Positions 2,776 through 13,169 are shown, counted from the stretch's first letter. The stretch is DNA of 13,169 nucleotides from a virus (IMGVR_UViG_2721755711_000005:1-13169), one strand, 5' to 3'. Numbers and translations are program-made. The notes: a model not told the origin generated them from the letters alone.

Positions 2776-2872
2776 CTTATTAATGCAAGGTGCAGAAACG
2801 ACGAAACCCGGCAGTGCGCGAACACTAACCGGGCTTCTAACCACCAACGATAGCAAGATTATCGAGGTAGCT

Positions 2873-3980: not shown

Positions 3981-5383
3981 AACTGGCACCGAACGTAAAA
4001 CTGTTACCGAAAGATAAACACACTGAGGCGGTTATTTTTGCGGGTGATAATGCTCACTCCTTTGCAGAACATTACATGATTGCACAGGCCAAAAAAGCAG
4101 GCGATCCCATCCCTCCGGTTTACCTGGGCCGTTATCAGTTAAGCGAACTGGACAACTTACAGATTGTTGATGAAGGACGATACAGAGCAAAGGTCATACG
4201 CGCCGGAAACCTGGACGATATGCAGATGCTGACCATTGCCACAAAACTGGCGATCGCCGGAGTCCAGGAGGCGCGGCTACTTTCTGAAAATTTCGAACTG
4301 CTGGAGAACTGGAGCGACCAACTACCACGACTACGGGAAACATGGGAGAGAGGGGAAAGCCTGGTCATGAATGGCAGAAAGCGAAAAATCACGCTTCCCA
4401 TCTCATGGGGTTCTGAGGGATTCGACGCGCAGCAAAGCTACGTAATTAAGGGGCTTATTCCGGCTGAATCATTATGCAGCACCTACGGCGCGAGTGGTTC
4501 CTATAAATCGTTCCTCGCCATTTCCTGGTCGTGCCATGTTGCCACAGGTATGGCATGGGGAGGCCGCAGGGTAAGTAAGGGCGCGGTTATCTATATCGCT
4601 GGTGAAGGCAGCATGGGCGTAAAACGCCGCGTAAAGGCGTGGGAGATAACCCACGACAAGGTGGTTACAGATTTGTGCATCATTAACGCGCCGGTATTCC
4701 CTGCATCGCCTGACTATGTGGAGCAGGTTATCAGGACTGCCGGACTTGTTAAGAGCAGAACGGGCGAAAATGTGCGGCTGATTGTGATCGACACGCTGGC
4801 CCGTTGCTTTGGTGGGAATGATGAAAATGATTCCCGTGATATGGGCGCATTTATCCAGGGGTGTGACGCGATAAAGCAGGCCACAGGGGCCACGGTGCTG
4901 GTGGTTCACCATTCCGGCAAGGATGAAACAAAGGGGGCGCGTGGTTCCAGCGCATTCCGTGCCGCGCTTGATGCAGAGTACCGAATCAGCCGGGAAAATT
5001 CAGACGTTACAGCACTGGTGGCGGCGTGTACGAAGATGAAGGACGCAGAGGAGCCAAAAGAAAGCGCATACGACCTTAAAAGCGTGGAGGTGTTCACCGA
5101 TACAGATGGCGAAGAGATTGTGTCTATGGTGGTGATTGACGTTCCCCGCGCCCCTGCTGAACTGGAACGCATCGAGGAGGCCGGGAACAAGACGGAGAAT
5201 CACGCCGCATTATGGCAGTGCATCAGAACGCGGACGGCACACGGGGAATCATGCACTATTGCCCTGCTGCGCGACGATATGAAAAAGCTGGGGTATGAGA
5301 TGAAGCACTTCCGGCGCTGGCTGTACAAGCTGGAAAAAGACGGCGTGATCACTATCGACGGCAATGACGTGCATCCACTGTAA
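3977..5383 (+). CDS. Replication protein with RecA-fold ATPase domain (AAA_25 / RepA-like helicase)
   Basis: 468 aa. Walker A YGASGSYKS, Walker B RLIVIDTLARCF, and a VLVVHHSGKDETKGARGSSA sensor region typical of RepA/DnaB-like AAA_25 ATPases. Immediately followed by an iteron array. Confidence 0.8.
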   Translation: MKLAPNVKLLPKDKHTEAVIFAGDNAHSFAEHYMIAQAKKAGDPIPPVYLGRYQLSELDNLQIVDEGRYRAKVIRAGNLDDMQMLTIATKLAIAGVQEARLLSENFELLENWSDQLPRLRETWERGESLVMNGRKRKITLPISWGSEGFDAQQSYVIKGLIPAESLCSTYGASGSYKSFLAISWSCHVATGMAWGGRRVSKGAVIYIAGEGSMGVKRRVKAWEITHDKVVTDLCIINAPVFPASPDYVEQVIRTAGLVKSRTGENVRLIVIDTLARCFGGNDENDSRDMGAFIQGCDAIKQATGATVLVVHHSGKDETKGARGSSAFRAALDAEYRISRENSDVTALVAACTKMKDAEEPKESAYDLKSVEVFTDTDGEEIVSMVVIDVPRAPAELERIEEAGNKTENHAALWQCIRTRTAHGESCTIALLRDDMKKLGYEMKHFRRWLYKLEKDGVITIDGNDVHPL

Positions 5384-5585
5384 AAGTGGGGGATAAAAGT
5401 GGGGATAGCGGGGAATTTAACAAAATTGAAACGCTATTCCCCACTTTCTGGCCTGTATACATCCAAAAAAGTGGGGAGTAAAAAATACAATGAAAAACAA
5501 AGAATTAGACTTACCCAAAAAACGAGGTGGGAAGCAAGTGGGAAATTTTAAAAGTGGGGAACAAAAGTGGGGGTAGTGGGGAATG
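5384..5585. repeat. Iteron array, putative satellite replication origin
   Basis: About 8 direct copies of AAAGTGGGGA-like units (5384-5395, 5395-5407, 5465-5478, 5524-5534, 5535-5545, 5549-5560, 5563-5573, 5574-5585) plus one inverted copy CCCCACTTT at 5439-5447, with AT-rich spacers, directly downstream of the helicase gene. Confidence 0.8.
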
Positions 5586-6811: not shown

Positions 6812-7336
6812 ATGACAAAGCTGACCATTAACCGAAAACCGAAAGGCATTTACGGCACGCTGCAGAAAACGACGCAGGCGATACAGCAGCAGGATAAAAC
6901 CACATCGGCGCATAAAGTGATACCCGGCAATCAGAACGCACAGCAGAAGCCCACAGGGGCGACACCGTGGCGGCATATGACCAAACGCCAGCGCAAAAAC
7001 CGCAGACGCGTTAATCGCCTCACTGAGATGTGGCCTGACTTATTCAGCCGGGAAGCGCCAAAACCGCTGAAGGTGGGGATATTCGACGACCTTATGCAGG
7101 ATATCGCCGTCAGGGGGCTGGCATTCGGGCCGGGGGCATTACGTGCGACGCTGGCATCTTATACGCAGTCTCCGCGCTATTACCGCGCCTTAATGGCTGG
7201 TGGGGTACGCTACGACCTGAAAGGCCAGCCATATGGGGAGGTTACACCACAGGAACAGCAGGAGGCAGAAACGCGGCTGATGGCACTGAATGAGAAGCGC
7301 AAACGCCGGGCAGCAAAGGAGAAGACGGGCACGTGA
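6812..7336 (+). CDS. ProQ/FinO-domain RNA-binding protein
   Basis: 174 aa. PLKVGIFDDLMQDIAVRG...LRATLASYTQSPRYYRALMAGGVRYDLKGQPYGEV aligns with the ProQ N-terminal FinO-like domain (PLKIGIFQDL...[35 protein letters not shown]). Basic C-terminal tail. Confidence 0.8.
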   Translation: MTKLTINRKPKGIYGTLQKTTQAIQQQDKTTSAHKVIPGNQNAQQKPTGATPWRHMTKRQRKNRRRVNRLTEMWPDLFSREAPKPLKVGIFDDLMQDIAVRGLAFGPGALRATLASYTQSPRYYRALMAGGVRYDLKGQPYGEVTPQEQQEAETRLMALNEKRKRRAAKEKTGT

Positions 7337-7608
7337 TTCACGACAGCAAAGCGGAAGAACTGGAGGCTAAAGGGCTGTACCGAAGAGCGGCGGCGCGGTG
7401 GGCTGAGGTTATGCAACTGGTGAACACCGATAAGGAGCGCGAACAGGCGGCAAAGCGTCGCGCGGAATGTATCCGTAAGGCAGCACGCTCACCCGTTATG
7501 GCGGATAACTTCGGGGCGCTGAAAGAGGCTGTAAACCGCACTCATGCGGTGATGGGGATGGAAGACGCGGGTAAATCCGTCTGGCGGAACTACCCGAAGC
7601 AGCCCTGA
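7333..7608 (+). CDS. PerC/Pch-family transcriptional activator-like protein, GTG start
   Basis: 91 aa. KAEELEAKGLYRRAAARWAEVM...EREQAAKRRAECIRKA...AVNRTHAVMG matches my recollection of the PerC/Pch signature (LE-GL-RRAA-W--VM...RR--C...NRT). AAGGAG 11 nt upstream; overlaps the stop of the ProQ-like gene. Confidence 0.65.
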   Translation: MIHDSKAEELEAKGLYRRAAARWAEVMQLVNTDKEREQAAKRRAECIRKAARSPVMADNFGALKEAVNRTHAVMGMEDAGKSVWRNYPKQP

Positions 7609-7705: not shown

Positions 7706-7728
7706 GCCGGAACACTCCGGCTTTTTTT
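7706..7728 (+). terminator. Rho-independent terminator ending the replication operon
   Basis: GCCGGA-ACAC-TCCGGC hairpin followed by a run of 7 T. Confidence 0.75.
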
Positions 7729-7805
7729 ACGGGTCCTCCTGATGGGGTACCCTTACCGCGGGGCGACGGACGCGCGGAAAACGGCTAATTTTTGAATTTT
7801 TATCG
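7722..7805 (+). repeat. cos-like element A (cosQ-like plus degenerate cosN-like), paired in inverted orientation with 12515-12595
   Basis: TTTACGGGTCCTCC...CGCGGGGCGACGGACGCGCGGAAAACGGCTAATTTTTGAATTTTT resembles the bona fide cos at 8548-8640. Its reverse complement recurs at about 90% identity at 12515-12595. Confidence 0.6.
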
Positions 7806-8074
7806 GTCATCACCACCAGCGCAATTTATTGATAATGAAGGTTAAAAAAATTCCTGGTGTCGAAAACGCCTGTTTTTTGTTCACCACTGAATCATGCCGC
7901 ATCACGATAACCCACAAGGCTGGTGGTGATGCGTTATGCTCCCTACGTTGCCATCCTCCTGACCTCATGGCATTATCCGGCGTGAACGAGCGGTTATTCT
8001 CCGTACTCTTAATCGTTGTTCATGGTTATTTGCTTTGTGGTAGCTTACATTTCCTGATGGTTATTATCCTTCCA

Positions 8075-8098
8075 CCCCGTAATCACGGGGTTTTTTTT
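8075..8098 (+). terminator. Rho-independent terminator in the non-coding region upstream of cos
   Basis: CCCCG-TAATCA-CGGGG hairpin followed by a run of 8 T. Lies inside the compositionally implausible ORF 7829-8167. Confidence 0.55.
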
Positions 8099-8547
8099 GT
8101 CTGCGATTTGCCGTTCTCCGTTGCGCTGGTGGTAACGTCACGACATGTCACCATCACGTCACGCTGATGGCGAAAGTCAGGGTTAACCAGTACCGGAACG
8201 GGTAGCCCGATGTACTGTTACCGTTCTGCTGGCTGGTGGAGTAATTGATAACGGTTATCATCAACGGGAGGGGTGGATCAAATCCCTGTAGTCCTGGCTG
8301 TCAGGGACCGCCGCCCAACCCTTCTTCACATCGCCGCAGGTTCGAAAACTTTTTTTTGGGAAGGTGCGCACAGACTTGATAGATAAAACCTATCAGACAA
8401 AACCACGCCAACCCCGCGCCATTGCTGGCATCGTTAAAAAAACTCACTCCACCAGCAGGCTAAAAAACCGTGATTTTTCCGGTTTTATGGGCTGAAAAGG
8501 GGCTCCCTAAAAAACACCTCTTACACTGCCGGACAGGAGCGGTGGCT

Positions 8548-8770
8548 TTTCACGGGTCCTTTCCGGGGATCTGAAACACCACGGGGCGGCAGACGCGCAG
8601 ATTTTCACTATTTATGAAAATTTTTCAGGGAAAAAGCATGTCGGTACTTCTTGCATGTAACATTATGTTTTTATTGCAACTAACTATCATAAACATACGA
8701 CACCATAACGCCGGAAAATCCCGTTTTTCAGGCGTTTCATGTCGGAGGTGGTTTTTGATGAGGATTTGAT
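8548..8770 (+). other. cos: Lambda-type cos site: cosQ-like (8548-8583), cosN (about 8584-8595), cosB (8596-8770)
   Basis: TTTCACGGGTCCTTTCCGGGGATCTGAAACACCACG|GGGCGGCAGACG|CGCAGATTTTCACTATTTATGAAAATTTTTC closely parallels the phage lambda cos junction as I recall it (...TTTACGGGTCCTTTCCGGTGATCCGACAGGTTACG|GGGCGGCGACCT|CGCGGGTTTTCGCTATTTATGAAAATTTTCC), and sits immediately upstream of a Nu1-like gene exactly as in lambda. Confidence 0.85.
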
Positions 8771-8772
8771 AA

Positions 8773-9357
8773 ATGAATGTTAACAAAAAGAGACTGGCGG
8801 AGATTTTCGGTGTTGATCCGCGCACAATTGAGCGCTGGCAGATGCAAGGGCTTCCCCATGTATCTGGTGGCGGAAAAGGTGTGGAGGTGACTTTCGACTC
8901 TACACAGGTGATCGAATGGTATGTACAGAGGGAGAAGGAGATCGAAAACGAAAAACTCCGCAGGGAGCTTGATGATTTACGTGCTGCTGGTGAATCAGAT
9001 TTACAGCCAGGCACAACAGAGTACGAACGCTACCGTCTCACCAAAGCACAGGCGGACGGGCAGGAACTGAAGAACGCCAGAGAGACAGGGGAAGTTATAG
9101 ATACTGAGTTCGTACTCTGTGCGCTTCGTGGACTGGCGAGTCAGATTTCTTCGATCATGGATAGTTTGCCGCTCACAATGCAAAGGCAGTTCCCCGGGAT
9201 GACTCCGGCAATGCTCGATGGCCTGAGGAAGGAAACAGCACGAGCCTGTAATGCGTGCGCTAAAACTGCCGATAACCTACCCCGCATTCTGGAAGACTAT
9301 CTGATGGAAACAACCGGAAACGTGCCGGAGAAGTTACGGCAACAGAAAGGTGAGTGA
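8773..9357 (+). CDS. Nu1-like small terminase subunit homologue (satellite packaging-redirection protein, Rpp-like)
   Basis: 194 aa, collinear with lambda Nu1 along its whole length: [28 protein letters not shown]...[12 protein letters not shown]...[11 protein letters not shown]...[28 protein letters not shown] versus Nu1 MEVNKKQLADIFGASIRTIQNWQEQGMP...GGGKGNEVLYDS...[11 protein letters not shown]...[28 protein letters not shown]. No large terminase gene follows. Confidence 0.9.
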
Positions 9358-9383
9358 CAACCGCGCAATTATTGAACAAAACT

Positions 9384-9442
9384 AAGAAAGGATCTGATAA
9401 CGTTATTTTTGGCCCAAAATGACCACTGTCAGATCCTTTCTT
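9384..9442 (+). terminator. Perfect 14-bp inverted repeat hairpin after terS (possible terminator or protein-binding site)
   Basis: AAGAAAGGATCTGA (9384-9397) and TCAGATCCTTTCTT (9429-9442) with a 31-nt loop, followed by TTTTTCTG. The loop is unusually large for an intrinsic terminator. Confidence 0.4.
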
Positions 9443-9494
9443 TTTCTGATGATTTTACGATTAAACAATGAGTTACAGAGAAGAAGAACGGATC

Positions 9495-9586
9495 TGACTT
9501 TTCCCGAAAAATTTTCATAAACAGTTAAGAATTGCGCGTATCCGTACCCCCGGCGCTCAAGATTCTGGAAAGGACCCGTGACACCT
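9495..9586 (-). repeat. cos-like element D, inverted copy of the cos region, downstream of terS
   Basis: Reverse complement reads GTGTCACGGGTCCTTTCCAGAATCTTGAGCGCCGGGGGTACGGATACGCGCAATTCTTAACTGTTTATGAAAATTTTTCGGGAAAAG, which parallels cos 8548-8632 in its cosQ core, its GC-rich centre and its TTTATGAAAATTTTTC block (roughly 75% by eye). Confidence 0.6.
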
Positions 9587-9590
9587 GACC

Positions 9591-9614
9591 AACAAAAAAG
9601 CCCCCGAAGGGGGC
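9591..9614 (-). terminator. Rho-independent terminator of the minus-strand toxin-immunity operon
   Basis: GCCCCC-GAA-GGGGGC hairpin. On the minus strand it is followed by TTTTTTGTT, immediately 3' of the immunity gene stop (9619). Confidence 0.75.
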
Positions 9615-9618
9615 TAAA

Positions 9619-9867
9619 TTACGCATCTTTAAAACTGGGTTTGCCATTAGCTAAACGCCAGGTTTTAACTTCTTGTACGATGGCTTCCGGGCTATCGTCT
9701 TTTCCGTTCTCTGGATAAAAAATTAGATCAGAGCCTGATGGATGTTCAGAGAGGCGCCTGAATTCTCTGACTAACTGCTCGCTTTCTTTTTCTGTTCCTT
9801 CTGCATTACATATTTTTCGAACAAGATCTAAGAATTCATTTTCAGTATAGTCGTTTATTGTTTTCAC
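9619..9867 (-). CDS. Colicin/pyocin DNase immunity protein (Im7/Im9 family)
   Basis: 82 aa, GTG start. [82 protein letters not shown] aligns along its full length with Im9 (...[79 protein letters not shown]). One nt separates it from the toxin stop. Confidence 0.92.
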
Positions 9868-9868
9868 G

Positions 9869-11560
9869 TTATTTTCCCCTGTGAATTTCTATATGCCGCT
9901 TTGGTGTTGTGATACCCATATTATCAACGTTATAAACTTCGCCCCCCTCACTTATAGGTTTAATATGGTGTATCTCGTAACGTTCCCTCCCACCAACTCG
10001 ATCCACTTCCCTTGTGAATGGTGAACGTCCTTTGCGAATGTTCGTGAGGTTGTGTGCTCTGAACTGTCTTGACAAATCAGCATCGTTTGCCACTTCTGCC
10101 CAAAATGCCTCCCTGAATCGATCAAAATTCGCAAATGTTCGCCCACGCATCCGCTCCGCAATCTGGCTGGGTACTGGTGCACCATTTCCCTTATCGGCAT
10201 CCACCAGCCACGCCCCGCTAATTTTTTGTCCTTTCCCTGTTACCTGCCCGGCGTTATTCCTGATGTAAATATAAATCGGCGGTATATCCGGGAATGGCAG
10301 GATCAGAATGTAATCCGCAAAATCCTTTTCTTCCGGGGCCGGGCTGGTTGTGGCGTGTAATCCCGTGTCATCCGGTAACGGGTCCACCATCACCGGATTC
10401 GGCAGCACTGGCGGGTACTGATTTCCCGTGTGGTACGGTACATCAATCCCCGGATTATCCGGCGTCCAGATGAGTGTGATACGCGGGTCTTCCTCCGTGG
10501 TGAACGTGTACGCCTTTCGTCTGTCGTCCCACTCCATCCGGCGCACGCGCACCCTGTCCTGTCCCGGTGGCGTGTGCCAGCCATGCGGCACGGGGTTCCC
10601 CCGGCTGTTCGTCTCCCAAGTAAAGCGAACACGGGTAGGCACTTCCCTGACCTGTTCGGCCCTCATACGGTCGATAAAATCCTGCTCCCCGTCATTCAGC
10701 CGGCCGGGCATCATCCCTATCAGAAACGCCGCCAGTGGCAGCCCCGCAACCCCGGTCGCGGTTTCGCCCACGACGGCCCACGTTCCCCGGATGGCAAAAT
10801 TTCCCGCCACCGGACGCAGAACGCTCGCCCCGGCAATTGCCGCTCTGGCCCGTTGTGCGCGCTCCGCTTCCTCAACCGCACGCTGATAATCCATTTCCTC
10901 GTGATGGCCGTTCCACCATTTCCACAGTGCACTGCGTTTCTTCGGCTTCGGAATATCCTCCGGCGCAATCAGTTTTTTCTTTTTGACCGCCTGTGCACGC
11001 TGCGGGGCTTCCGTGTCTGTCACCGGGTCAGTCTGCGGAACGGCCTGATAAATCCCCATCGGTGCAAAGTTGGTATGCGGCTCCCGCTGGTCGCCCGCGT
11101 CGTTGCATCCCGCACCGCGCAGACAGGATTTTGCAAACACCCGGTTACGTTCCCGTTCTTCCTCCCGGCGTTTTTCTTCAGCTTCCCGTTCTGCCCTGCG
11201 TTGTGCTATCAGTTCCGCCTGTTTTTTCTGTGCAATTTCTGCCGGCGACGGCCCCGCCCCCATCCACTGACCGAGCGGGGCAATAATCCGGTTTGAACCT
11301 TCAGGGCAGCCACAGTGAACAACACAGCCATCAACGGCAATGGGAATATCTATCACCTTAAAACGGGCTTCTCCTTCTGCCACCATGCCGGGCTTTCCGC
11401 ACGCCGGGCAGGGAGTGGTTTTGTCTCCCTTACGAATAAGACCGTTACCACAGACGTTGTAGTTAGGGACAGGAAGGGAAGTAATCAGCCATGCGCCGGT
11501 GGTGGTTTTGTCACAGGAAAGCGCCATTCCCCTGCCGTGTATATCCGGTCTGTATGTCAT
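9869..11560 (-). CDS. Polymorphic toxin: Cys-rich N-terminal domain, charged linker, central domain of unknown function, C-terminal colicin E9-type HNH DNase
   Basis: 563 aa. The C-terminal ~130 aa ([49 protein letters not shown]...[55 protein letters not shown]) align with the colicin E9 DNase domain, including the HNH motif. N-terminus has multiple Cys ([16 protein letters not shown]). GGAG RBS 8 nt upstream; ATGA overlap with the upstream gene. Confidence 0.9.
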
Positions 11561-12045
11561 GGCTTACACTCCGGCACCAGAAAATCCGCTGGCATACTTT
11601 CGCCTTCACGACAACAAAGTAACGTTATTCGCTGCGGCGTACTGATAATCTCATCCCCGTTATCCAGTTGGCTGCCAACCAGAGCATACCCTTTTCCGTG
11701 ACAACTGAACGCACTGCCGGAACCGCTGATAATACGGGCCGTAGTGCCGTCCTGATACGTCACCTCATCCCCGACCATCGCCATTTCTGCCATCTCTCCG
11801 GTGCTGTCAGCGACTTCGCAGCCGGAACTGGCGGAAGACACCACCCCGCCATTACGGGTAAGGCTACCGGTAGTGGCATGTCGCCAGATAGCCACAATCG
11901 GATGTTGACGGCAAAATTCCTCCTGCTCCCTGATTATCGCCAGCGCATCATCGGACATATCAGCAAGCGCTTCCTCTGTGAAAGGGGATTTATCCAGTTC
12001 TGCCAGTACATCGGCGGTCAGTTCGTTGGTATATTGCTTCATCAT
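11557..12045 (-). CDS. Hypothetical protein (162 aa) co-transcribed with the toxin: acidic helical N-terminus, Gly/Ser-rich C-terminal half, Cys cluster; candidate PAAR-like partner, adaptor or chaperone
   Basis: First gene of the minus-strand operon, translationally coupled to the toxin by an ATGA overlap. C-terminal half AMVGDEVTYQDGTTARIISGSGSAFSCHGKGYALVGSQLDNGDEII is loosely reminiscent of PAAR-type repeats; ends with LLCCREGES...PECKP. Confidence 0.6.
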   Translation of the reverse strand: MMKQYTNELTADVLAELDKSPFTEEALADMSDDALAIIREQEEFCRQHPIVAIWRHATTGSLTRNGGVVSSASSGCEVADSTGEMAEMAMVGDEVTYQDGTTARIISGSGSAFSCHGKGYALVGSQLDNGDEIISTPQRITLLCCREGESMPADFLVPECKP

Positions 12046-12514
12046 GTTTCTGTTTTTCCTGTGGTTAACAATCGACCAGAATCATAATGAAAGGGAATGC
12101 AAAAAAATTGATGGATATCAAAATGAAAAATAAAATCATCCCGGTAAAACAGGATATCTACCCCACCAGCATCCCTGGATTTTCAGATAGTTGCTTTTAG
12201 CCTCTGAACAACATCTGCTGGTGGCTGATAATTACAATAATTCCTGCCCCCTGGCGTTTCTGAGCATGTTTACCGCGAATTTTGCGCAAAACACCTTAAC
12301 AATTCTTAAATTTTAAAAACACTTCAGTGATAAGCATCACCGCTCCCGCTCACATTTGACACAGGCAACTCCATCTGGCAGGTGAAAATCAAATTTATTT
12401 ATATATTTCAATTGATTGTAAACTGGTCTAATGACAGGGGAGAAAAAAGACTGTACAGGTGAAAACAGAAATAATTCTTAATTATCAATGAATTATCACA
12501 CATGCTGCCGCCGC

Positions 12515-12595
12515 CATGAAAATGCAAAAACTAGCCGTTTTCTGCGCATCCGTCGCCCCGCGGTAAGGGGCACCCCACCGGGAGGACCCACGACG
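12515..12595 (-). repeat. cos-like element C, inverted partner of element A (7722-7805)
   Basis: Reverse complement CGTGGGTCCTCCCGGTGGGGTGCCCCTTACCGCGGGGCGACGGATGCGCAGAAAACGGCTAGTTTTTGCATTTTC matches 7726-7805 at about 90% by eye. Confidence 0.6.
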
Positions 12596-12884
12596 ATCAG
12601 GGAGTTTTATCAACGTCGTGTGTTATGCCGGATTAACTGCGTACGTAATACGTGCACATCCCGGACAGGAGCAGCCAGAATCAGCGCCGCTGACGTTGTT
12701 TTGTGGTTATCCCCCTGTCATGAATCATCGCAATGGTTTTATGTGTTCTGCGTTGCGCTGGTGGGTTATTCCACCATTGGTGGGAAACATGGCACCACAT
12801 CCACCAGCTTAAACGCGCTTCACCTTCCCGGCATCAGTCGCCACAATTACGGCATTGCTTTCCATCACCACGGAGGCCATGACC

Positions 12885-13169
12885 ATGACCGAAGCCGAAA
12901 TGCTCAAAATGATTCGCCGTGCTGCCGGAATCAGCCAGGCAGCAGGCAAACAGGAGGCCACGCAACCGGACAGCGTGATAGCCGAAAATTACGCGCGTGT
13001 GGTGGCTGATGTGATGCGCCGTGACGGTATCGAGCTTAACGGCGTGGATATGCGCGATATACGAACCAGAGTTCTCGAGTTGCTGGCATGTCGTCGCCGT
13101 TCTCAGCAACGGAGGGAGAGCGCGAAAAATACTTACCAGTGGAAGAAGCCGGAGCGGTTACGGCGGTAG
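12885..13169 (+). CDS. Hypothetical protein, 3'-truncated by the window end
   Basis: The ORF runs to the window edge. GGAGG at 12872-12876 is 8 nt upstream of the ATG at 12885 (the ORF track starts at 12855 with no RBS). No family recognised. Confidence 0.4.
   Translation: MTEAEMLKMIRRAAGISQAAGKQEATQPDSVIAENYARVVADVMRRDGIELNGVDMRDIRTRVLELLACRRRSQQRRESAKNTYQWKKPERLRR

Follow-up and report, generated by a model that had tools for sequence, protein, structure and literature searches.

Two nested inverted pairs of cos-like sites in the packaging region of an E. coli phage satellite

Fillol-Salom et al. have shown experimentally that the PICI EcCICFT073 possesses two functional cos sites (2018 ISME J, PMC6092414; 2019 Mol Cell, PMC6739421). 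When cloned, cos2 confers phage-mediated transfer (PMC6092414, PMC6739421), and its deletion from the island raised transfer instead of lowering it (PMC6092414). We mapped the published cos.1 and cos.2 (PMC6092414 supplement) to L009 15523-15602 (plus strand) and 16262-16340 (minus strand), flanking rppA: the two sites are an inverted pair around this gene. The available portions of PMC6092414 and PMC6739421 contain no comment that we could find on inverted orientation or inversions, and beyond these two EcCICFT073 papers we found no literature on inverted cos sites or on PICIs with four cos.

The DNA analysed here (the window, 13,169 nt in full) comes from E. coli C5 and is a phage satellite of the PICI type that shares the EcCICFT073 backbone: int, an AlpA-type HTH regulator, Icd-like, DUF4222, primase/helicase, SSB, PerC and a terminal gene, “hyp”. 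The annotation of L001 places the insertion beside tRNA-Pro, between yejM and yejO, and lists int, HTH, Icd-like, DUF4222, RepA-family helicase, SSB, ProQ and PerC among the island genes. Pfam searches and annotation found an integrase, an AlpA-type regulator and a primase/helicase module, no virion structural or lysis genes, and no large terminase or capsid genes in the satellite; induction, packaging and high-frequency transfer are predicted to depend on a helper phage, as for a PICI. The island falls in the ~10-15 kb range of PICIs, at a putative att site whose repeat is not firmly established: the sole candidate is a 16-nt repeat at L001 4312 and 18201, so the right end of the island is not firmly defined. 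The part of the window considered here is laid out as follows:

7333-7608, plus strand: PerC-family gene (Pfam PerC, E 3e-36; annotation)
7722-7809, plus: site A, outer cos-like site (profile match 72.9 bits), with a cosQ-like segment at 7724-7739 and a cosN predicted by alignment to lambda at 7761-7772 (GGGCGACGGACG)
7830-8530, plus: spacer X (cargo slot 1), a conserved, apparently non-coding stretch of ~700 nt
8547-8752, plus: site B, inner cos-like site of phage-21 type (74.5-76% identity to the phage 21 and 4A7 cos over 205 nt), with cosQ 8547-8564, cosN 8584-8595 (GGGCGGCAGACG), conserved block 8608-8626, R3 8634-8649, inverted R2 ~8690-8706 and R1 ~8736-8752 (CATGTCGG motif)
8773-9357, plus: small terminase gene terS of the island, Nu1/gp1 family, 194 aa (Pfam Phage_Nu1, E 8e-68)
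9384-9583, minus: site D, inner cos-like site toward the terS 3' end (75% identity over 206 nt to the SerU-LTIIb prophage cos), with R1 9384-9399, R2 9427-9442 (opposite orientation) and R3 9486-9501 (motif CAGATCC), conserved block 9506-9524, cosN ~9537-9548 and cosQ 9567-9583
9599-12045, minus: toxin operon, cargo slot 2 (Pfam, annotation, terminator scan)
9599-9615, minus: terminator of the toxin operon, abutting the cosQ side of D
9619-9867, minus: colicin/pyocin immunity protein
9869-11560, minus: PAAR / S-type pyocin / colicin-DNase toxin
11557-12045, minus: PAAR protein
12050-12500, minus: region Y, of which 12323-12500 is the “gamma” cosB-side extension of C and the rest lies upstream of the toxin operon
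12513-12596, minus: site C, outer cos-like site and inverted copy of A (profile match 61.4 bits; 87.8% over 74 nt to A), with a predicted cosN at 12547-12558 (reverse complement GGGCGACGGATG) and a cosQ-like segment at 12580-12595
12610-13169, plus: region Z and the terminal gene hyp, the fixed right-hand backbone flank
12885-13169, plus: hyp gene (94 aa, PHROG 1561 match)

The initial annotation had proposed four cos-like sequences, and all four are present at the coordinates and in the orientations that it gave. Searched with a joint profile of the four sequences and lambda cos, the 29-kb chromosomal region yields exactly these four sites and no further ones (E 2e-18 to 2e-25). The cosQ core GGGTCCTYYC occurs three times against 0.09 expected by chance; site A carries GGGTCCTCCT at this core. 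Comparison of the window with itself resolves the similarity into collinear blocks in both of the inverted pairs that had been described. A and C align without gaps over 54 nt at 91% and 22 nt at 86% (74 nt, 87.8% identity, one gap, E 3e-20), and B and D over 65 nt at 72% (longer alignment: 112 nt, 74.1%, E 1e-12). As had been noted, B and D each contain the cosQ core TCACGGGTCCTTTCC (for comparison, the lambda cosQ is TTTACGGGTCCTTCC; PMC6092414 supplement) and the conserved block TTTATGAAAATTTTTC; the resemblance over ~85 nt reported for this pair is real, but extends to ~200 nt of cosB architecture (R3, inverted R2, R1).

The inner pair, B (plus) and D (minus), faces inward around terS, and the outer pair, A (plus) and C (minus), faces inward too. 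EcCICFT073 likewise has two lambda-family cos with different cosB sides, inward-facing around an HTH packaging gene, and B and D are the positional homologues of its cos1 and cos2. With two functional cos already published for that island (PMC6092414, PMC6739421), the view that additional cos copies are unexpected was overstated. Unlike EcCICFT073, the window encodes a full-length Nu1/gp1-type TerS in place of Rpp (redirecting phage packaging), which forms heterodimers with the helper TerS; its two inner copies have different cosN 12-mers, and it adds an outer inverted pair of another cos family as well as cargo slots.

Site B had been called a lambda-type cos; it is a cos site, but is nearer to that of phage 21 than to that of lambda. 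Its cosN, GGGCGGCAGACG, aligns with bases 1-12 of phage 21, and because the phage 21 left end aligns to window position 8584, the placement of cosN at 8584-8595 is supported. The R3, R2 and R1 of B, of the CATGTCGG type, match the phage 21 sites (R3, I1, R2 and R1 are annotated in OL657228); a degenerate search for these elements with 3 mismatches was uninformative (39 matches, 35 expected). B is located 21 nt or more upstream of terS. The product of this gene covers positions 1-162 of the 164 of Phage_Nu1 and matches PDB 6hn7_B (E 7e-39), and is thus a full-length Nu1-family TerS and not an Rpp homolog (37% identity to RppA over 30 aa only). Its nearest phage relative is only 69.6% identical; in the alignment the region of the DNA-binding helix is close to that of phage 21 gp1 and the C-terminal half is divergent. 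B matches the 21-like DNA-binding helix of the island TerS.

In site D, the R motif CAGATCCNTTCT is found in 3 copies, against 0.14 expected, in a lambda-like R1/R2/R3 arrangement. The D cosN, GGTACGGATACG, occupies the same alignment columns as the known cohesive end and differs from it in the central bases; many positions distinguish the B 12-mer from that of D. Both inner sites thus display the cosQ, the cosN segment and the three-R cosB with its middle element inverted that characterize the lambda/21 family. D faces the 3' end of terS, and its cognate terS is absent from the island; in the SerU-LTIIb prophage, a D-type cos does precede a terS. D is a complete cos with R elements of its own, like that of the SerU-LTIIb prophage, and matches a SerU-LTIIb-type TerS. 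Cutting by terminase and packaging from B and D are putative; both activities have been demonstrated for their positional homologues, EcCICFT073 cos1 and cos2. Across islands whose terS genes are 92-95% identical, the D cosB (168 nt) is conserved at 96-98%, which points to constraint.

The outer pair is of the cos type found in those lambdoid phages (mEp460, phi458, Stx phages) whose small terminase is a DUF1441 protein. In mEp460, phi458, 1720a-02 and VT1-Sakai, the cos region, positioned between the lysis genes and the DUF1441 terS, is 77-81% identical to site A, and the linear record of mEp460_4F5 begins inside the segment homologous to the outer sites. DUF1441 itself matches PHROG 141, “terminase small subunit” (E 8e-55). 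The cosB side of A is of the “alpha” type and includes the phage-like CGGTCATCACCACC; that of C is without the phage-like GTCATCACCAC motif. A is mEp460-like, and C a further variant of the DUF1441-phage type. Pfam, annotation and similarity searches found no DUF1441 terS in the window, and one does adjoin the A-position site in islands L003, L005, L007, L015, L027, L028 and L033. The phi458-type cos with DUF1441 terS is found in 1,362 of 5,426 complete E. coli genomes (~25%), and the outer island sites in ~24-28 of the 5,426.

Each stretch from an outer cos to the neighbouring inner one is a cargo slot, and the toxin operon occupies one of them here; across islands, the slots contain spacer X, the toxin operon, a DUF1441 terS or a subunit of F4 fimbriae. 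The suggestion that the cos copies are a footprint of toxin acquisition is only partly right; the toxin lies in a slot between inner and outer cos that holds other cargo in relatives. Spacer X is present in relatives at 81-98% identity, in either orientation and on either side of terS, and has no match in Pfam, PHROG or Rfam. A decayed DUF1441 terS in X, which would imply a simple inverted duplication, was considered and dropped, as tblastn and blastn found no similarity. No Rfam RNA family lies in X or near the sites; elsewhere, Rfam gave nothing beyond a SymR-like match below threshold (2800-2872) and a match to a fluoride riboswitch that is attributable to chance. The first 178 nt of region Y are 93-94% identical in relatives, always adjoin an outer cos and occur at either position. 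The slots are bracketed by fixed flanks. PerC is the final backbone gene ahead of the packaging module. The hairpin (7706-7721) and T-run (7722-7728) of its terminator directly adjoin A on the cosQ side, and this flank is fixed at the A position across all islands. The region Z/hyp flank is collinear in all relatives, and the hyp gene is found in 730 of the 5,426 genomes.

We consider it reasonably probable, at roughly 65%, that these four cos sites represent two terminase systems in a PICI packaging module serving several helper types, and that they are also recombination hot spots. The sites carry four different cosB sides, namely phage-21-type, SerU-LTIIb-type and two DUF1441-phage variants, which fits the idea that the copies are alternative sites for different helper terminases; we infer the packaging function of each site, and its use. 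Helper terminases of several kinds can therefore probably cut and package the island: the inner pair, of the lambda/21, Nu1-type TerS family, flanks the island's own terS, and the outer pair is of the type that phages with a DUF1441 small terminase use.

It is also conceivable, if unlikely, that only B and the island TerS work in packaging, with A, C and D as inert relics of past recombination with helper phages or other islands, retained only because inverted repeats cause no loss of the intervening DNA. The unreduced transfer of EcCICFT073 after cos2 deletion, the lack of a DUF1441 terS for A and C in the window and the mosaic cos sequences, which record a history of recombination, would all agree with this. 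However, D retains three R elements in the right arrangement as well as cosQ, cosN and the conserved block, its cosB has diverged less than terS, every copy at every position keeps the cosQ core and a cosN-like segment, and the cloned EcCICFT073 cos2 does give phage-mediated transfer.

That the sites are substrates for inversion or recombination, as had been proposed together with a comparison of homologous islands, is supported by comparative genomics: among related islands there are orientation isomers for each of the two bracketed segments. In 15 typed four-site islands, the outer and inner segments occur in all four orientation combinations. L004 and L006 align collinearly in their flanks (91-92%) and have the interior, 2,685 plus 299 nt, in opposite orientation (87-91%); the breakpoints fall within the 73-nt core of A/C. 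The window and L016 are collinear through PerC-A-X, and 8553-9581 runs the opposite way (90.7% over 1,029 nt). The inversion breakpoints lie within cos cores of 60-110 nt. The outer flanks do not move, whereas the same cosB-side types can turn up at one position or the other. Given 9-13% sequence difference between isomers, inversion seems to be a rare event of evolution and not a fast switch; no near-identical islands in opposite orientation, a sign of recent flipping, were present in our sample, and close relatives share one orientation state among genomes whose orientation could be inferred. The related PICIs L024 and L025 have two cos copies in direct orientation. The inverted arrangement is therefore not obligatory, and the notion that it is needed for stability is weakened.

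In the reading that we prefer, terminase would make double-strand breaks in short conserved sites common to islands and phages, and recombination would happen at these sites because they are short, conserved, shared and cut. The comparison of islands shows directly that exchange within the cos cores has inverted the inner (cosB-terS-cosB) and outer segments; the mechanism was likely homologous recombination or gene conversion, which cutting at cos may have stimulated.

A more direct route, which we had entertained as exchange strictly at cosN and demoted to a very unlikely alternative, is that terminase cuts two inverted cos with matching cosN and the two equivalent cohesive ends of the interior re-anneal either way. 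The geometry of inverted cos would permit such flipping, and the predicted A and C 12-mers are one base apart (GGGCGACGGACG and GGGCGACGGATG). However, the inner segment has inverted too, with 12-mers that differ at many positions, and lambda terminase remains bound to the cut end. Furthermore, with respect to the flanks, informative polymorphisms have been reshuffled on the left of cosN as well as on its right, as in L003 at the A position and in the window's own mosaic A copy, which fits homologous exchange at variable points. A blastn hint that the C-position copy of L003 is cut off exactly at cosN did not hold: profile and alignment show its cosQ side to be present and divergent, so it is not a cos-end junction.

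There is also a slim chance that the suggestion of decoys is right, with the additional sites titrating or misdirecting helper terminase as a form of helper interference. PICIs do interfere with helper packaging (PMC6739421), and the island lacks the TerS of the phage type that the D cosB matches, but the interference by EcCICFT073 maps to RppA and not to its cos sites (PMC6739421), and we found nothing in support of decoys. A programmed, high-frequency inversion switch of the shufflon or Gin/Hin kind, controlling terS/toxin expression or packaging direction, would suit the four natural orientation states and the conserved inverted repeats, but is extremely unlikely given that the island has no invertase or extra recombinase (only a P4-type integrase at its left end), that the isomers come from different lineages at 87-91% identity, that exchange took place at varying points to the left and right of cosN instead of at one fixed crossover, and that close relatives share one state where orientation could be inferred.

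A bolder version of the preferred reading, which we hold as doubtful, is that the packaging sites double as portable recombination sites, where helper-terminase breaks or targeted recombination at paired, inward-facing cos flip the terS core and the cargo-bearing outer segment and swap cargo between satellites and helpers. If true, the island would be a terminase-powered, two-level shufflon, which would explain why “extra” cos are retained with no transfer benefit.

This island family sharpens, and makes testable, a question quoted from PMC6739421. The published EcCICFT073 sites prove to be an inverted pair around the packaging gene, and a sub-family has a second inverted pair from another terminase family. 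Each cos copy has a distinct cosB side, to which a separate class of helper phage can be assigned, and the natural isomers mark the sites as the places where segments flip and cargo (the PAAR/pyocin DNase toxin, the fimbrial subunit) is exchanged. If all sites are functional, a 14-kb satellite could ride several very common prophage types, which bears on the spread of toxins, adhesins and defence genes. The cos sites also suggest themselves as natural homology arms for engineering satellite cargo.

Among known systems, B displays the complete layout of phage 21, with an island TerS that has a 21-like recognition helix, and D the R3 / inverted R2 / R1 layout of lambda. The differences from these phages are that four sites are found per element, in a satellite, and that two of these have the “wrong” orientation with respect to any terS. 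SaPIs are likewise satellites whose own TerS redirects helper packaging, and the best-known SaPI TerS acts in pac, not cos, packaging. To our knowledge, no nested inverted cos arrangement has been reported in SaPIs. TerS family and host differ between SaPIbov4/SaPIbov5 and the window island; SaPIbov4 has two putative cos sites (PMC6092414). Gin/Cin/Hin and the R64 shufflon also have nested inverted-repeat segments in several orientation states, whereas the island is without a dedicated invertase and its repeats are packaging sites; compared with shufflons, its exchange points are variable and its isomers evolutionarily old. Finally, the hotspots of P2-like phages and P4-like satellites hold variable accessory genes in a fixed slot of the packaging region, flanked by conserved sequence (background cited in PMC12829572); in the island, the slot boundaries are cos sites of two families, and the slots form an inverted pair.

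Escherichia coli C5 (NZ_CP010122.1) carries sequence identical to the window, and its annotation places the insertion between yejM and yejO, with tRNA-Pro adjoining the island. The backbone genes (integrase, AlpA-type HTH regulator, Icd-like, DUF4222, RepA-family helicase, SSB, ProQ/FinO and PerC) are followed by the four-cos region and then by a small terminal gene, hyp. This is also the gene order of EcCICFT073, the published PICI of strain CFT073, and genes for capsid, tail, lysis and large terminase are missing from the window, which marks the element as a PICI-type phage satellite of ~14 kb. A single 16-nt repeat is the candidate att site, and the right end of the island is not firmly defined. 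Just 3′ of the helicase gene, a palindrome (5435-5480) adjoins direct repeats at 5381-5416 and 5549-5584 (TAAAAGTGGGGGATAAAAGTGGGG..., 89% identity, 168 nt apart), which together look like iterons of the island's replication origin. Positions 2800-2872 (minus strand), in divergent regulatory DNA close to the YlcI/YnfO and Icd-like genes, resemble the SymR antitoxin RNA of Rfam, though below threshold (33.3 bits, with a gathering score of 61; E 0.004).

The initial annotation described four cos-like sequences in two nested inverted pairs, and both their reality and their layout (A> X B> terS> <D <toxin operon <C) are borne out:

Features of the four-cos region and its right flank
7722-7809, plus strand: A, outer cos-like site
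7830-8530: X, a spacer of ~700 nt
from 8547, plus strand: B, inner cos-like site
to 9583, minus strand: D, inner cos-like site
9619-12045, minus strand: toxin operon
12513-12596, minus strand: C, outer cos-like site
12885-13169: hyp, 94 aa, PHROG 1561 (function not assigned there)

A and C are 87.8% identical over 74 nt (E 3e-20), with a best ungapped run of 54 nt at 91%, and B and D are 74.1% identical over 112 nt (E 1e-12). There are three copies of the cosQ core GGGTCCTYYC where chance predicts 0.09, and a profile built from A, B, C, D and lambda cos found these four sites and no others over 29 kb of the chromosome. The similarities are thus non-random. The hyp gene, invariably just outside the last cos site, is the commonest marker of the island family (730 of 5,426 E. 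coli genomes).

By its sequence, B is a lambda-family cos, complete and of the phage 21 type. It shares 74.5-76% identity over 205 nt with the cos of phages 21 and 4A7. The R3, inverted R2 and R1 annotated in phage 21 have counterparts here that keep the CATGTCGG motif, and alignment of the phage 21 left cohesive end to 8584 puts cosN of B (GGGCGGCAGACG) at 8584-8595. The terS gene downstream encodes a full-length Nu1/gp1-family small terminase (Pfam E 8e-68; PDB 6hn7_B E 7e-39). Its 14-residue helix-turn-helix is that of phage 21 gp1 and its C-terminal half has diverged; the closest relative among the phages in the collection reaches at most 69.6% identity. That this TerS is an Rpp (redirecting phage packaging) protein was ruled out, identity to RppA being 37% over 30 aa. 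D is likewise a complete cos in sequence, with cosQ, a cosN-like 12-mer GGTACGGATACG, the TTTATGAAAATTTTTC block and three copies of the R motif CAGATCC (0.14 expected) arranged as lambda R3, inverted R2 and R1. The cos of the SerU-LTIIb prophage has the same R motif and layout, and its small terminase has a different recognition helix. Across islands the 168 non-coding bases of the D cosB are 96-98% identical, against 92-95% for the terS coding sequence, which argues for functional constraint on this cosB. The predicted 12-nt cohesive ends differ between copies within one island, both in the window (8584-8595 and 9537-9548) and in the related locus L018 (GGGTACGTGTAC and GGGTAGCCATAC, in copies at 7756-7843 and 8703-8791), so ends cut at different sites would not anneal together. 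Such a mismatch could keep the sites of one island from cross-terminating.

A and C belong to another cos family, with matches at 77-81% to mEp460, phi458, 1720a-02, VT1-Sakai and other Stx phages. The matched phage segment separates the lysis genes from the small terminase, and one linear phage record begins within it. These phages have a small terminase of the DUF1441 type (Pfam E 1e-41; PHROG 141, ‘terminase small subunit’, E 8e-55) and abound in E. coli, where 1,362 of 5,426 complete genomes carry cos and terS of this type. The outer sites are an addition in a sub-family of islands, with contiguous PerC and A in 24 of 5,426 genomes and C, its right flank and hyp in 28 of 5,426. The four sites are cos-derived and fall into two families, and every site has a different cosB side.

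With the backbone as reference, we oriented 25 related loci, drawn from complete genomes, IMG/VR and metagenomes, and located their cos sites and landmarks. All four sites are present in 15 islands, invariably as two inward-facing pairs, so within this family the arrangement is seen to be conserved; the typed islands are a small sample, in which some sequenced strains may recur among the IMG/VR and metagenome loci.

Orientation states of four-site islands (position of X; strand of terS)
X left, terS plus: the window, L013, L014
X left, terS minus: L006, L016
X right, terS plus: L004, L017
X right, terS minus: L003, L005, L007, L015, L027, L028, L032, L033

These four states are the ones expected from two independent nested inversions. 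For the outer one, L004 and L006 have collinear flanks (91-92%) and an inverted interior (2,685 nt and 299 nt, at 87-91%), and the alignments overlap within the 73-nt A/C core. For the inner one, PerC, A and X are collinear between the window and L016, and window 8553-9581, which spans the B core, terS and the D core, lies in the opposite orientation (1,029 nt, 90.7% identity). Alignment thus shows both bracketed segments to have been inverted by exchange within the cos cores.

Alignments of all copies locate these exchanges. The outermost flanks, namely the PerC terminator at one end and the flank preceding hyp at the other, are fixed by position. Both cosB sides of the inner pair remain joined to the terS ends, and the two inner cosN types occur with outward flanks in every combination. 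The outer cosB-side types (alpha, gamma, delta and a phage-like epsilon) are seen at either position. Polymorphisms both left and right of cosN have been exchanged and the window's A copy is mosaic, a pattern suggestive of homologous recombination or gene conversion in 60-110 nt cores, at no fixed crossover point.

A strict form of terminase cut-and-flip is possible for A and C, whose 12-mers differ by one base, but fails to account for inner inversions between unlike 12-mers. Recombination within the cores would be directed to cos because cos sites are the only sequences that islands and helpers share and because terminase double-strand breaks would promote exchange there. Cutting at cos is recombinogenic in lambda. 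The island encodes no invertase and the orientation isomers are 9-13% divergent, so we read the inversions as occasional events and not as a switch. We propose that different helper terminases use the different sites: the island's own TerS would act at B, a helper TerS of the LTIIb/PhiR5_1 type at D, and DUF1441-type helpers at A and C.

The interpretation in the initial annotation is supported in part: among the roles it suggested, alternative terminase sites and substrates for recombination or inversion gained support, and decoys and a footprint of toxin acquisition found no specific support. The slot between outer and inner cos holds X, a PAAR/pyocin-DNase toxin operon, an F4-family fimbrial subunit, a DUF1441 terS or shorter filler, and comparison of the loci shows that such slots exchange cargo. 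The PerC terminator abuts A and the toxin operon terminator abuts the cosQ side of D; given this and the variable contents, the toxin cargo occupies a recognisable slot and did not cause the repeats.

The toxin operon encodes a PAAR protein, a PAAR/S-type pyocin/colicin-DNase toxin and a colicin-type immunity protein. Related operons in three loci (L002 10597-13255, L026 8370-12289 and L030 1392-3191) are 97% identical over the first ~1,800 nt from the PAAR-gene end, and their C-terminal toxin domain and immunity gene are replaced (DUF6392 immunity). STEC346 has a decayed copy, joined to the terS 3′ end and D, within another, IS3-interrupted genomic island. Spacer X, 81-98% conserved among islands, lacks a convincing ORF and matches nothing in Pfam, PHROG or Rfam. 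It travels with an inner cos and is found on either side of terS; L029 has a copy on each side, the two forming an inverted repeat of 430 nt (94.7% identity), and fragments also lie downstream of hyp in L019, L021 and L031.

The four-cos module belongs to a known kind, the cos packaging modules of PICIs. It gives a question still debated in the field a form that specific experiments can address. Our literature search found no description of four sites, of their nesting or of the inversions. EcCICFT073 reportedly has two functional sites, cos1 and cos2, with lambda-like cosQ and cosN and divergent cosB sides; the RppA-TerS complex recognises cos1, and deletion of cos2 raised transfer (PMC6092414, PMC6739421), so a second site need not help transfer. 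In the cosB of cos2, repeated CATGTCCGG / CCGGACATG elements resemble the R elements with CATGTCGG found in phage 21 and in CFT073 prophage 4. Phage 21 and this prophage have identical TerS proteins, and the resemblance suggests that cos2 may be the site that the helper TerS reads directly. Two related PICIs adjoining clpS carry cos-like pairs in direct orientation (L024 3755-3837 and 6291-6369; L025 3757-3839 and 6291-6368). Between the two sites lies a ClpP-protease/major-capsid fusion gene, and beyond them come a DUF1441 terS and hyp. They represent a different multi-cos architecture within the same family, and the inverted geometry is thus not the sole viable one. On the CFT073 locus (L009), the published cos1 and cos2 sequences lie at 15523-15602 (plus) and 16262-16340 (minus), facing inward around rppA, which makes B> terS <D their positional homologue. 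EcCICFT073 has this one inward-facing pair, whereas the window adds an outer pair.
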